Below are positions 1,942-13,789 of a stretch of 64,000 bases of DNA, piece by piece (positions within the stretch are counted from its first letter, which is position 1; the number at the start of each line of letters is the position of its first letter). The stretch comes from a virus, in IMG/VR virus record IMGVR_UViG_3300045391_000819, positions 1 to 64,000 of that record, one strand, 5' to 3'. Both the position numbers and the translations under genes were made by a program. The notes under the pieces are model-generated. The model had not been told where the DNA came from and ran no database searches. It saw only the letters and a list, made by a program, of their open reading frames with translations.

Positions 1942-2134
1942 CTTTTTTATTTATTACTACTTTTAATGTTCTCCCCTTCCACTTGTAGTAGAATGTAGAG
2001 GAGGTATCATCCGATACGTCAGGGTTAGCTACAGACTTAGAATAACAATTAAACCCCTGATCTACAGCGGCCCGCCGTGCTAGCTCTTCGTAGTTATCTT
2101 TTGGAAGCGAAGTTGTTATCTGGACTATTTGCAT
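1913..2134 (-). CDS. hypothetical protein, probably leaderless mRNA
   Basis: ATG lies 4 nt downstream of the -7 promoter element. Confidence 0.65.
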   Translation of the reverse strand: MQIVQITTSLPKDNYEELARRAAVDQGFNCYSKSVANPDVSDDTSSTFYYKWKGRTLKVVINKKDEPSKSDTV

Positions 2135-2138
2135 TGTA

Positions 2139-2169
2139 CAAATATACGAAACAAAAATTCCTATTCCAA
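2139..2169 (-). promoter_or_regulatory. Bacteroidota sigma-A-type promoter
   Basis: TTG-N20-TATATTTG on minus strand. Confidence 0.8.
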
Positions 2170-2208
2170 GTGTTTGATGTTAAAGGTTTGTGAAATAAAA
2201 AAGCCCCA

Positions 2209-2640
2209 TTAAAGGGACTCATTTTTTGTTATAAAAAATACAATAATCGTATGGTCACTTCGAATAAATCCTATGGAGTCAAACTTAGAACCATCCGCTT
2301 CGTATCTAACAGCAAAGATACCATTCTCCTTACTATTTTCCATAACAGCGTCATAATAAAAATAAACGTTACCTTCCTCATCTGTATAAGTATTCTTAAA
2401 ATTACCCACTGCAATAGACATTCCGCTAGAATCCTTATTATCAACTTTCTTAATGACTACATGGGTAGGGATAGTATTATGATGGGTAAATGTAATAACA
2501 GATTTTAAATCACCTTGTTCAAATATTCCATCGTGAACACGACCTATTCGGTCAGATTGTAGAACTGAGTCTTTGGTGGCTTGGGCACTCAAGGCGGATA
2601 CTGATAGCAGAAGGGCTAACCCTATTAGGAATTTTTTCAT
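2209..2640 (-). CDS. secreted/periplasmic hypothetical protein
   Basis: Sec signal MKKFLIGLALLLSVSALSAQA. Confidence 0.75.
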   Translation of the reverse strand: MKKFLIGLALLLSVSALSAQATKDSVLQSDRIGRVHDGIFEQGDLKSVITFTHHNTIPTHVVIKKVDNKDSSGMSIAVGNFKNTYTDEEGNVYFYYDAVMENSKENGIFAVRYEADGSKFDSIGFIRSDHTIIVFFITKNESL

Positions 2641-3005
2641 TATTTTTTAATTTTATGTTTACGTTCTGGGGTAGGCTCAAATTCAAAATCACTAGCCGAT
2701 TTAACAGCAGTCCCAAGCATCGCCTGACGAATCCCCTGAAACTCTTCATACCTGATCTTAGCTATAAAGCTAAGCCCGCCTTTAAGGAATATATGAGTAT
2801 GCTCATCATCATGTTCCGAGAACGGACAAGCATCCCTTACATCTATAGTGACTGGAACGTAATCATATTCTTTCTCCTCCTTGTGAGAATTCTCCCACTC
2901 CTCTTCATCAAAATTAGGCAGAAGCCTCAGAGTCTTATACTCCTCACGATCTTCTTTACTTATTTCTTTCTTTCTCTCCCGACGCATCAGAATTTGAAGT
3001 TCCAT
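2640..3005 (-). CDS. hypothetical protein (start moved to MELQILM)
   Basis: Track start at 3122 is a TTG inside a promoter; ATG at 3005 follows an A/T-rich region. Confidence 0.7.
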   Translation of the reverse strand: MELQILMRRERKKEISKEDREEYKTLRLLPNFDEEEWENSHKEEKEYDYVPVTIDVRDACPFSEHDDEHTHIFLKGGLSFIAKIRYEEFQGIRQAMLGTAVKSASDFEFEPTPERKHKIKK

Positions 3006-3020
3006 TGTATGAATGATTTT

Positions 3021-3057
3021 AAAAAGAAGGGAGGCTAACCTGCACGACGAACCTCCC
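3021..3057 (-). terminator. possible intrinsic terminator/attenuator in the leader of the 2640-3005 gene
   Basis: GGGAGG...CCTCCC stem (17-nt loop) followed by TTCTTTTT. Confidence 0.5.
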
Positions 3058-3119
3058 CAAGCTGTGAATGGATCGCCCAATCTCGTTATGGCAGAACATC
3101 CAAGTTCACCAGCGAAAAA

Positions 3120-3151
3120 CAAATATACGAAAAAAAATTGACATCTCCAAA
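3120..3151 (-). promoter_or_regulatory. Bacteroidota sigma-A-type promoter
   Basis: TTTG-N20-TATATTTG on minus strand. Confidence 0.8.
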
Positions 3152-3318
3152 AAAAGAAAACCTAAAATTTTGAAAACCAAAGTATTCTCACCTCTACTAC
3201 CCCAGTTTAAACTTCTCCCCGCCCGCTTCCATAAACCGGCTACCGTCCCCCCTCAAAATTCGCTAAAAGACTCAGGATCAACAACTTATAAATCTTTTAA
3301 AGTTTTTTACCCTCTTAC

Positions 3319-3350
3319 TTGTTTTGACCTATGCCTTTAGCCTATCTTTG
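3319..3350 (+). promoter_or_regulatory. Bacteroidota sigma-A-type promoter (divergent)
   Basis: TTG(3319-21)-N21-TATCTTTG(3343-50). Confidence 0.7.
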
Positions 3351-3354
3351 TACT

Positions 3355-4082
3355 GTCGTCACTGTAAAGCTCCAATGTGAGCAAGGGACGGCCAAACTAC
3401 CTAGTTTTTTACGTTGCCTTGTGTGACGTTTCTAAAGGTAGTAGGATGTCTAACTATGGTGCATTTTTTGCGGTCTTTTGACCAGTTGCCATACTTAGGC
3501 CATAAAGTAGAGGCGAAAATACAGCCTGCCTGCAATGTATTGCAGATTAACGACTACTAAGGGTAAAACCTTAATGTAGCGTAGGGTATAAGATTACGAT
3601 TTTATACTTACAGTAGGACTCTTTAAGTAGGGAGCAGGCCGAATATTGCCCATAAATACCCAAAGGTGGTAGTTTTAGACAGTAGGAAATGACTGTAGTC
3701 CATTTAAATGCGACATAACGGCCTAAGTCTCAATGAGATAAGGTATGGACATGCCACAAGCGAAAGCGAACGGGTTGCATATGCGAAAGCATTCGTAAAA
3801 GAGAGCGCAGATTGAACTCTTTATGCAGTGGGGTTACGACCATGCCAACAGGCCAAGAAAGGACTGGCAATCTATTCTTGAGCTTACAAGGGGACTGTGG
3901 ACACTAGTCAGCCACAAAAGTCTATCCGTTGGTAGAGTGCATTGATTATCAGGTCAATAGCAGCCGTAATGGTGTAGCTACTGGTAACGTGACACTAAGG
4001 ACAAGTGAGGGATATATACATTTGATTATAGCCTGCGAAAGTAGGGAAGGGTGTCTTGACTCTAGTCGAGATGCCCTTTTTT
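3355..4082 (+). ncRNA. candidate large structured non-coding RNA (about 730 nt)
   Basis: No credible ORF; many hairpins with GAAA/UACG loops and G-U pairs; bounded by promoter and terminator. Confidence 0.55.
4047..4082 (+). terminator. intrinsic terminator
   Basis: 14-bp stem AAGGGTGTCTTGAC/GTCGAGATGCCCTT with 3 G-U pairs, 4-nt loop, U tract. Confidence 0.8.
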
Positions 4083-4198
4083 GCATGTCCGTAAACGTGC
4101 GAAGTATGGCATAATGTATACTATTGCCCACTTGACAAAACGGTATAGAGCTGAAAGGGACAAGTAAGCAGGGACTATACAAATAGATAATTACTACT

Positions 4199-4234
4199 AA
4201 GGGTGAGTCAATATTAGTTGGCTTGCCCTTTTTT
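4199..4234 (+). terminator. intrinsic terminator
   Basis: 13-bp stem AAGGGTGAGTCAA/TTGGCTTGCCCTT then U tract. Confidence 0.8.
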
Positions 4235-4374
4235 ATATACTCATAGGGAATCGTATGTAAGATGTTAGTAGGTTGGCTGGCAGTCTGAACAATTGTTAGT
4301 CCTAACTTATTTACTAACGGACTGCACGAACGATATTGGTGCGAAGCCTGCCCTATGAGCTTAACTAATCAGAT

Positions 4375-4581
4375 ATGTTCAACAATTCAAAAACGTTGGC
4401 TGCATGTGTACCATGCCCAATTGATCGTGGTGAGCTATTAAGTGACCGTGATTTTGCCCGTTTAATGATAACTCATACTAGAGGGTATTTAATGCCAGCT
4501 AGTTATGCAACCTTCATTAAGTATTATCCTAAACTTGAAGATGTTGCGAAGTCTATTGTCAATCAATTGAAAGGTTATTAA
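4375..4581 (+). CDS. hypothetical protein
   Basis: 68-aa ORF, first of the plus-strand arm. Confidence 0.55.
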   Translation: MFNNSKTLAACVPCPIDRGELLSDRDFARLMITHTRGYLMPASYATFIKYYPKLEDVAKSIVNQLKGY

Positions 4582-4692
4582 TCAATCACTTATGGCAGAA
4601 CTTGTAAAGAATGCCTTTCTTGGGGCAAACATTACCAGTAAGGAAGCAATATTACTATTGCGGAAATTCTGTAAGATGTCCAAGAAAGAGGC

Positions 4693-4929
4693 ATGGTATT
4701 ATCTTTACCATTAATCTATCTTGTTATGTGTGATGATAAAGAAAGGGTAGAACGTATTAGGCGGGCTACTCAAAAATCTATTGATGACCATGAAAGGATA
4801 TTGGCAAGGATTGAGAAGCAGGCCAGTGATCCTGAGATATGGGCAGAGTCGGGTTATTATCTTCAAAAGGATATAGATGCCGAGCGTTCCTATCTAATGG
4901 TTATGTATCACAAATTGCATTCGCTGTAA
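4693..4929 (+). CDS. hypothetical protein (start may be 4726)
   Basis: ORF track; charged helical product. Confidence 0.55.
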   Translation: MVLSLPLIYLVMCDDKERVERIRRATQKSIDDHERILARIEKQASDPEIWAESGYYLQKDIDAERSYLMVMYHKLHSL

Positions 4930-5351
4930 TATATTGGTATTGAAAACGCTATGCAATGTTTTCCATTTGCGGGCTGGCTAATACCCGTTTGCTTGCATTG
5001 GTTTTGATTGCATCTTTTCTGGTTAGTAAGTAAATAAGGCGGGCATTCCTTAATTGGTTTGCTCGCCTATTTATTTAATCTATTCATCTGTAAATTAACC
5101 AGTTATGCAACATAAACTTGGGTGTCATGCACCTTTAGAGTCATTCTTTGCGTCATTCACTCGCAAACATTTCTGCATATTCAGAGTGGATAAACTTGAG
5201 ACTACATTATGCAGACAATTCTTTGGAACGGACTTTCAAAATTACATTATAATTCTCAATTAATATCATGGAGACAATCGTTCACATCTGTGACGTGAGT
5301 GGGCAGGTAACTACCTGCATTGCTCATGGCCTTGCATAATTAATAGCATAT

Positions 5352-5795
5352 TTGATGCAGGGAGTATTGGGTCAAGTTCGAGCCAGTTTTGATGCCAGCA
5401 AGTCAATTAATCAACTACATATTTTTATGGACATTGGTATTCATTATGAGAGGCAGACTAAAAACTTTGTTAATAAAGGTGAAAAGTCAATCTCATATAA
5501 ACATCGGCTAGGTCATAAGGCAGCCAAGATGAGGCAATCGGTATTTATTACAGGATTGCCCGAACGTATTAATACGAAATGGAAAAAGGAATTGACCAAT
5601 AAGCTAAGGACATGCGATAATGAGTTCAGGCATGACACCAAAGCTATTATTCGTACACCATACGGAAGTTTTCAAATTACGGTTCGTGATATTAGGACAT
5701 TTTCTAATAACATTGCGAATTGCATTCTCTTAACTATTAAGAAACGTGACGGCAGGGATGAAATTGATAATGCCAATCCACGTTCTTTAAAATGA
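5352..5795 (+). CDS. hypothetical protein
   Basis: 147-aa ORF; start uncertain. Confidence 0.6.
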   Translation: MMQGVLGQVRASFDASKSINQLHIFMDIGIHYERQTKNFVNKGEKSISYKHRLGHKAAKMRQSVFITGLPERINTKWKKELTNKLRTCDNEFRHDTKAIIRTPYGSFQITVRDIRTFSNNIANCILLTIKKRDGRDEIDNANPRSLK

Positions 5796-5850
5796 TATAA
5801 GCAGGTGAACGCATATATCCTGCTATTTTTCATCCATTAAATATTTCCAC

Positions 5851-6474
5851 ATGTCACAAGATGGAAAGGCCATAGCTGTGCGGCCTAAGTATGACAGTCA
5901 GAATACTGTTATAGTTACAATGTCACAGAATTTGAGCCGGATTAACAAGGCCGGAGAATTGGTTACGTTCAACGAGCAGCAAACATTCAAAAGCACAACA
6001 ATTCGTGAAGTCAATTCACATAATGTTGCGTTATGGGTTATGACTGTTCTGAGACAGTTCGTAAAACTTGCCAGATTGCAAGGTAAGGATGGTTTTAAGC
6101 TATCTAAACCTATCGTTATGGCGGTTGAAGTTAACGGGCGTAAATTGCACGTTAAGACAACTGGTGAGGAATCAGTATCTTTCAAGTTTACTCTTTCCCT
6201 GAAAAGGATTGAGAATATGCTTGACAAGTATCCTGAATTGTTGAAGGTTGCCTTTGCTCCTACGCCAAACATCGGTGGTATTACTGCGGGTCAGGTACGT
6301 GATTACTTCAATGGAGCTAAGAGTCTTATCTTTGCGAAAGCTAAGAAAGATGAATTGCTTGATGCTCCTATCTCAACTGAAAAGTTTGAGGAAGTTGAAG
6401 TTGTTACTGAAACCAAACCCGAAGTAACTAATCCGTTACTCGATGCTCCGGTTGAAGGTAATGAAAACGCCTAA
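5851..6474 (+). CDS. hypothetical protein, probably highly expressed, acidic C-terminus
   Basis: 207 aa; GCT/GAA/ACT-rich codons; followed by a terminator. Confidence 0.8.
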   Translation: MSQDGKAIAVRPKYDSQNTVIVTMSQNLSRINKAGELVTFNEQQTFKSTTIREVNSHNVALWVMTVLRQFVKLARLQGKDGFKLSKPIVMAVEVNGRKLHVKTTGEESVSFKFTLSLKRIENMLDKYPELLKVAFAPTPNIGGITAGQVRDYFNGAKSLIFAKAKKDELLDAPISTEKFEEVEVVTETKPEVTNPLLDAPVEGNENA

Positions 6475-13514: not shown

Positions 13515-13789
13515 AATTATGTTATTATGTGGTATATCGTTTGCTTTTTTGCAGGGTTCATTGTAGCTTTGTCTCTTGCTGGCCTGTTTATTTATTATCG
13601 TATTTTAAAACCTTTTTGGGACTCATTCTAAATCAATAAGTTATGTCAAAGATTACTGGTTCGCTTGAAAACAGATTGCTCATTGAAGCAAAATCAGGAA
13701 ACAAGGCAGCCCTTCGTCGCCTTAAAAAGATATTTGATCGTCGTGGTTTCACGATAAAAACGAATTCATTAAGTAAAGTAGCGTAATAG

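Follow-up and report, generated by a model that had tools for sequence, protein, structure and literature searches.

The junction between the two divergent gene arms of an uncultured soil phage carries, at 3355-4082 on the plus strand, what is probably a stand-alone gene for a trans-acting, highly structured non-coding RNA of ~730 nt. Comparison with relatives directly supports a picture in which this arm-junction gene consists of a conserved frame (upstream region, promoter, 5′ hairpin P1, terminator and overall length) and a replaced core. All positions refer to the window, i.e., the whole stretch of DNA analyzed, which is the first 64 kb of a 131,721-bp IMG/VR virus record; this record has a 69-bp terminal repeat, indicating a circular assembly.

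The TerL, portal and major head proteins match PHROGs 6681, 6547 and 11589, and the Pfam family Crass_capsid (PF23898) is found on the capsid protein of relatives. The crAss-like affiliation rests on these matches; the source is an uncultured soil crAss-like phage, a member of an ecologically dominant group. The cultured phages nearest by TerL are Leptolyngbya phage Lbo-JY46 (52%), which has a ~1-kb unannotated end at the corresponding place with no similarity to the window locus, and next Cellulophaga and gut crAss-like phages (~30%). Genes lie on the plus strand from ~4.4 to 55.4 kb and on the minus strand in the remainder of the genome, and the RNA locus is the exact divergence point of these two arms. 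The window has 14 matches to TTTG-N14-20-TAnnTTTG, compared with 4.3 ± 1.9 expected, and several occurrences stand directly before genes; this excess of bipartite Bacteroidota-type promoters indicates that the host is most likely a member of the Bacteroidota. One match to this promoter type is found at 13540-13571 (+). The proteins neighboring the RNA locus have no Pfam or PHROG assignment, and a search for homologues of the 68-aa downstream ORF found none.

The RNA gene lies in a gene-free gap bounded by the start codon of a leftward gene (3005) and the first rightward ORF (4375). A first-pass annotation of this DNA had proposed that the RNA has its own promoter immediately upstream, and we find there a rightward Bacteroidota-type promoter (3323-3350, +) with a −33 element, TTTG (3323-3326), and a −7 box, TATCTTTG (3343-3350), which is kept in relatives C, D, E and B; transcription is predicted to start at about 3355-3358. 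The transcript would begin with the hairpin P1 (3355-3392, +): its outer stem is separated from a 4-bp inner hairpin by an internal loop that is asymmetric, with GUAAA in the 5′ strand and AA in the 3′ strand. The ~650-nt variable core that follows (3393-4045, +) is particular to this phage and is predicted to hold a long-range 9-bp helix, formed by an inverted repeat at 3493-3501 and 3720-3728, together with GAAA- and UACG-capped hairpins. An intrinsic terminator (4046-4082, +) closes the gene; the U-tailed terminal hairpin of the first-pass annotation is therefore real, with a stem of 15 bp (4046-4082) rather than 14 bp (4047-4082), a 4-nt UCUA loop and a U6 tail. The terminator and its neighboring hairpin fold with −28.9 kcal/mol (z = −6.5). 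The sequence thus directly supports the assignment of a host sigma-A-type promoter and a strong intrinsic terminator to this RNA. Downstream, an ORF-free spacer (4083-4236, +), whose first ~50 nt are kept in relative C, carries a second terminator-like hairpin (4199-4230) and a T run. Positions 4188-4204 of this spacer are a 17-nt direct repeat of 3548-3564 (15 of 17 positions identical, core ACTACTAAGGGT); the upstream copy belongs to an internal hairpin of the RNA, the downstream copy to the base of the hairpin at 4199-4230.

The region is free of credible protein-coding sequence, as had been claimed, under genetic code 11 and under both recoded readings. No ORF longer than 48 aa lies wholly within 3355-4082 (+), and on the plus strand none longer than 61 aa is found past 3340, up to the ORF at 4375. 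Recoding of TAG to Gln and of TGA to Trp occurs in crAss-like phages; we rejected a recoded protein gene here, since reading TAG as Q or TGA as W opens no ORF longer than ~100 aa.

To evaluate the predicted fold quantitatively, we compared its minimum free energy with those of dinucleotide-shuffled sequences. On the plus strand, 3355-4082 reaches −229.8 kcal/mol, compared with −197.6 ± 6.6 kcal/mol for 100 shuffles (z = −4.9); the best shuffle reaches −213.9 kcal/mol, so that none of the 100 matches the RNA, and a second run with 20 shuffles gave z = −5.3. The reverse complement scores only z = −1.7, while the core by itself (3393-4030, without P1 and the 3′ hairpins) retains z = −3.3. These folding calculations directly support a strand-specific structure for the 3355-4082 RNA, and the folding energy withstands the shuffled control that had been named as a check. 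The small hairpins that had been offered as evidence all exist at the coordinates given, among them CTGCAA/TTGCAG (3530-3545), a 9-bp stem with a UACG loop (3586-3607), GC-GAAA-GC (3760-3767), AUGC-GAAA-GCAU (3781-3792) and CCUGC-GAAA-GUAGG (4032-4045). Their evidential weight is smaller than had been assumed: the RNA contains four GNRA- or UNCG-capped hairpins, compared with 1.9 ± 1.3 in shuffles, and 57 of 500 shuffles equal this count, which is not significant by itself; more weight therefore belongs to the global fold than to these individual hairpins. The segments CCUAAG and UAUGG (3721-3748), tried as an 11-nt GAAA receptor, were rejected, as CCUAAG is better read as part of the helix 3493-3501/3720-3728.

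Parts of 3000-4400 are present in 20 public sequencing runs, six of which are metatranscriptomes; the runs come from 16 studies, which cover soil, rhizosphere and groundwater. We examined four runs over 2000-6000 in the form of assembled contigs only, all of which are 100% identical to the window and so supply no variants for covariation. In three metatranscriptomes from three studies, contigs with zero differences cover 3370-3999 (655 nt), 3381-3877 (497 nt) and, as two contigs of 169 and 185 nt spanning 3512-3877, 3512-3680 and 3696-3877; the first downstream ORF (~4380-4598) is also present in two of the three. This stretch was assembled from RNA libraries of ~240 million letters, whereas most of the DNA runs containing it exceed that size several-fold to 60-fold. 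Because the RNA libraries are so small by comparison, we infer transcription from their contigs, which give presence only and not strand, ends or level, and which DNA carry-over could also produce. The expectation of a discrete transcript is in this respect answered in part: identical contigs occur in three metatranscriptomes, while strand and ends cannot be read from contigs. In one run, the 3′ end of the Illumina read-2 adapter abuts position 3370 directly, as expected from a fragment end near the predicted start (~3355-3358). The gaps at 3009-3369 and 4000-4379 in the RNA runs do not mark transcript ends, and the shared contig end at 3877 (two contigs, two studies) is, without coverage there by a DNA run, not even a weak hint of one. 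Contig depths of 21.4, 7.4 and 2.3 cannot rank the RNA against its neighbors. The stretch 3000-4400 is 100% identical in runs of four studies (2018-2025; soil, rhizosphere, groundwater); either a remarkably widespread and clonal phage or a common source of the data sets would account for this.

The RNA does not resemble any family in Rfam 15: the whole window gives no match at the gathering score, and 2900-4500 gives none at E≤10 with lax filters, with GOLLD, ROOL, OLE, HEARO and raiA included in the search. The suggestion that this RNA may be new therefore holds. We rejected RNase P, group I and II introns, small ribozymes and riboswitches on the same grounds; tmRNA, because both ARAGORN, which detects neither tRNA nor tmRNA in the window, and Rfam are negative there; and the template RNAs associated with retron, DRT or UG-type reverse transcriptases, because RVT_1 has zero matches across the 131.7-kb genome. 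The comparison with GOLLD and ROOL that had been drawn is apt as to the kind of object and fails as to homology. Like them, the window RNA is large (~600-800 nt), intricately folded, phage-encoded, untranslated and the product of an apparently stand-alone gene (cryo-EM study, PMC12286853). However, GOLLD and ROOL are conserved families that usually lie beside tRNA genes, whereas our window has no tRNA gene and the core of its RNA is replaced between close relatives; they also assemble into homo-oligomeric cages.

A closer parallel in genome position is provided by Cellulophaga phage phi14:2, in which two long non-coding RNAs encoded at the g004-g005 and g005-g006 junctions, close to where the early arm begins, are reported to outnumber most gene transcripts and to persist through infection, with functions that "remain to be determined" (bioRxiv 10.1101/2020.03.07.982082). 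The window RNA is likewise an ORF-free ~0.7-kb stretch of a crAss-like phage, located near the start of the early or replication arm on that arm's strand and present in RNA libraries. In sequence, it shows no BLAST, HMM or CM similarity to the phi14:2 RNAs. The phi14:2 g005-g006 RNA (NC_021806, 4031-4502) is itself a tmRNA by Rfam: a full-length match scores 46 bits (E = 2.6e-16; gathering score 47), and the record has no tmRNA annotation. The g004-g005 RNA folds no better than its shuffles (z = 0.15). Thus the window RNA differs from both in being strongly structured and not a tmRNA, and it has a host-type promoter, whereas the early transcripts of phi14:2 have no common motif.

Relatives with a corresponding locus had to be sought through proteins. 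No close relative was found by blastn of 3000-4400 among 50,697 phage records or in the viral contig collection; related-locus searches with three window proteins, and exact scans of the viral contigs with a window hairpin or the 17-nt upstream motif, yielded nothing useful. TerL homologues in a set of 5.8 billion proteins define a clade of 105-132-kb phages, among them relatives A (L008; TerL 65%) and B (L010; TerL 63%), whose junction gaps of 1.75 and 1.5 kb are both ORF-free. The 121-aa leftward neighbor protein led to relatives C (L026), D (L027) and E (L028) on short contigs, in which this protein is 66%, 55% and ~70-72% identical to that of the window, within an overall range of 55-79%. 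Synteny is backed by tblastn of the flanking genes, and the neighbor protein and further genes match in A-E. An RNaseH-like anchor, applied to metagenome and viral contigs, recovered only B and distant phages without the junction, and the contig P0123 offers just 111 nt of upstream DNA. Two further sets of matches were discarded: 29 viral-contig matches to the C/D/E motif were due to chance, and the upstream motif common to six phages gave one viral and 69 genome contig matches, none of which has the extended upstream region or the expected promoter.

Among these relatives, the junction RNAs of C, A and B have no Rfam match, and their folds reach z = −6.7, −3.4 and −5.5, respectively. It is directly supported that the arm-junction locus carries structured, ORF-free RNAs in all five relatives examined. 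In relative B, the first RNA is followed by another stretch of ~540 nt (L010 1851-2387, −) that lacks ORFs, is rich in hairpins and has a terminator of its own, and just past the junction RNA of relative A is a T-arm-like minihelix (GGTTCGATTCC loop region; L008 ~5785-5818, −). The relatives have 20-30 tRNA genes within 10 kb, compared with zero in the window.

Relatives C, D and E share one RNA, defined here (L026:1360-2093, L027:1-717 and L028:1-510, respectively, all −), with 74% identity between C and E over 466 nt (E = 5e-65) and 70% between C and D over 318 nt. RNAalifold predicts 128 consensus pairs for these sequences, of which 51 show compensatory double changes, long-range helices included. 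We assessed this result over the 526 columns in which all three sequences are present, using 40 column shuffles that kept the conservation class. The consensus energy is −98.1 kcal/mol, compared with −33.6 ± 3.6 kcal/mol in the shuffles, and 37 pairs are both fully paired and compensatory, compared with 9.6 ± 2.6 (maximum 17). This covariation beyond shuffles, although it is based on three sequences only, indicates that the RNA at the arm-junction locus is under structural selection. The covariation that had been called for is accordingly strong in the syntenic C/D/E RNA and does not extend to the window's own core: the C/D/E core is that of a sister allele and cannot be aligned to the window core, which leaves the internal helices of the window RNA without comparative support. 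Of the three outcomes that had been named as refuting the RNA (no discrete transcript, chance-level folding energy, no covariation in homologues), all were addressed and none counts against it, so the first-pass reading is supported.

What the window shares with C, D and E is the frame. Its upstream 350 nt are 74-77% identical to theirs by BLAST; P1 has the same shape in all four phages despite differing sequence, as seen in four separate folds; the terminator is kept in C (82% over 34 nt), with similarity continuing ~50 nt past it, and the 5′ half of the window terminator is present in D; and the RNA lengths are 728 nt in the window and 734 nt in the C/D/E type. The core, in contrast, differs. 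BLAST of ~3393-4045 against C, D and E finds nothing (window and E no better than E = 0.18), and a C/D/E HMM run over the phage's genome has zero matches at E≤1. A covariance model of P2-J-P3, the module best conserved among C, D and E, scores 104-108 bits on these three and finds nothing in the window, A, B or phi14:2; at the window locus it scores at most 10.9 bits, and that on the wrong strand. When the C/D/E helices are threaded by position with slack (an earlier wide-slack version had no power), D scores z = 4.0-6.7 and the window z = −0.7 to 1.2. All conserved C/D/E core motifs, e.g., ACAUAUCGCAAA, CGUAGAAAUACGAUG and GAGCGUAAAUUGU, are absent from the window, whose core shows no similarity to any fetched locus, A and B included, or to its own genome. 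The window RNA therefore agrees with the C/D/E type in locus, upstream region, promoter, P1 and terminator, and not in the conserved core.

Gradual drift cannot explain this difference: of the four phages, the window and E resemble each other most (neighbor protein 72%, upstream DNA 87%), more than C-D or C-E, pairs with readily alignable RNAs, yet the cores of the window and E are unalignable. Most simply, we infer that the core was exchanged with a distant allele by recombination in the conserved flanks. The matched lengths (728 and 734 nt) hint that the cores could be very distant homologues rather than unrelated sequences. Relatives A and B carry further different sequences, so that at least four core types occur among the six phages.

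These data bear on several readings of the locus other than a stand-alone RNA gene. Since the first rightward ORF (4375) follows directly on the same strand, the RNA might be a cis-acting leader of the rightward (replication or early) arm that controls, through processive antitermination (as with the put RNA of phage HK022) or attenuation, whether transcription passes the terminators at 4082 and 4236. Two terminator-like hairpins do separate the RNA from that ORF, and a pattern scan of 4083-4375 finds no Bacteroidota-type bipartite promoter; this absence weighs little, however, because the early genes of phi14:2 are read by a virion RNA polymerase without recognizable promoters (bioRxiv 10.1101/2020.03.07.982082). 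The HK022 put RNA is similar in being a structured RNA that opens an early phage operon and is followed by terminators, but the window RNA, compared with it by Rfam search only, is ~10 times larger and shows no read-through evidence; indeed, 730 nt is an order of magnitude above known antitermination RNAs. The terminator is, moreover, very strong (15 bp and U6) and conserved, and the core is replaced among close relatives (the downstream genes differ too). On balance, we regard a cis-acting leader as unlikely.

Two other readings are less probable still. Origin-activating or primer RNAs, such as ColE1 RNA II and the T4 ori transcripts, suggest that the locus could be a replication-origin region whose transcript is structured for R-loop formation. 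The sign of the GC skew changes at ~3300-3400, with the other extreme at ~55.4 kb, at the second strand switch, but this is not independent evidence, because it coincides with the switch in gene orientation. The 350 nt upstream of the RNA, which hold A-tracts and a C-rich element, are better conserved than the neighboring proteins, so that an origin, if there is one, would have its conserved part in the DNA upstream and not in the RNA body; furthermore, covariation over ~500 nt in C, D and E and the dedicated intrinsic terminator favor a folded RNA product over a primer. We therefore find an origin improbable. The least probable reading, in our view, is a transcribed, fast-evolving spacer that has no function of its own and folds well by chance. 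A core that is not kept between the window and its closest relatives, and for which covariation data are lacking, is what such a spacer would show. Chance folding is nonetheless hard to reconcile with a z of −4.9 on a single strand only, with the clear structural selection on the C/D/E equivalent, or with the fact that promoter, P1, terminator and length are all kept.

If the RNA is the product of a stand-alone gene, as we favor, we give about even odds to a role in trans during infection, with the RNA serving as a stable and compact scaffold or decoy. Such an RNA could form an RNA-only assembly or be bound to a host or phage protein, and could serve in host takeover or counter-defence; whole-core turnover would fit an arms race, and P1 and the terminator hairpin would then be end-protecting or common-recognition modules. 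Our preference for a scaffold or decoy comes from the contrast between a constant expression frame and cores that are exchanged wholesale among close relatives. Just two considerations, abundance-type precedent and this evolutionary pattern, suggest the role. A more specific and more tentative possibility, to which we give less than even weight, is that the junction is a cassette locus: a promoter-P1-terminator frame of fixed length would hold at least four unrelated ~650-nt cores in six phages, swapped by recombination as if each targets a variable host factor. Each core might then be a specific decoy, inhibitor or assembly directed against such a factor, e.g., a defence system.

Large, intricately folded RNAs without an assigned function are rare and mostly tied to phages, and they form a tractable problem in RNA biology. 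To our knowledge, the abundant early non-coding RNAs of crAss-like phages, noted in 2020, have never been explained. The present results add an environmental case, in which the sequence of a large phage RNA is present in metatranscriptomes, and a sister RNA (C/D/E) whose secondary structure can be drawn from just three sequences. The pattern of a kept frame with a replaced core is unusual; it offers an experimental handle (core swaps, type-specific partners) and hints at a role in an arms race. If the cassette reading were true, this would be the first example in a virus of whole large RNA folds being diversified by exchange in the manner of alleles.

Several elements beside the RNA are also of interest. 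The RNA promoter stands back to back with a leftward Bacteroidota-type promoter of the divergent arm, located by pattern scan at 3120-3151 (−). Between the two, nhmmer and alignments delineate a C-rich element (3201-3252; CCCAGTTTAAACTTCTCCCC ... CCCCCC), in which the motif CCCRGWTWDAACTNCTCCCC is followed ~30 nt on by a run of five to seven C in all six phages compared; this element is a candidate regulator-binding or origin element. The leftward transcript is predicted to start near 3113. The predicted 5′ leader of this transcript contains a 17-nt motif, GGATCGCCCAATCTCGT (3070-3086), that is unmatched in the viral contig collection; although non-coding, the motif is identical in relative A (TerL 65%) and nearly so in D and E. 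Farther along the same leader lies a hairpin (3021-3058, −) of the form GGGGAGG-loop-CCUCCC, and behind it a run rich in U, at a distance of 16-24 nt from the start codon at 3005. Relatives C and E retain this hairpin with compensatory changes (GGGGG/CCCCC in C) and almost no variation in the loop, UAACCUGCACGA; it resembles an attenuator or a protein-binding leader.
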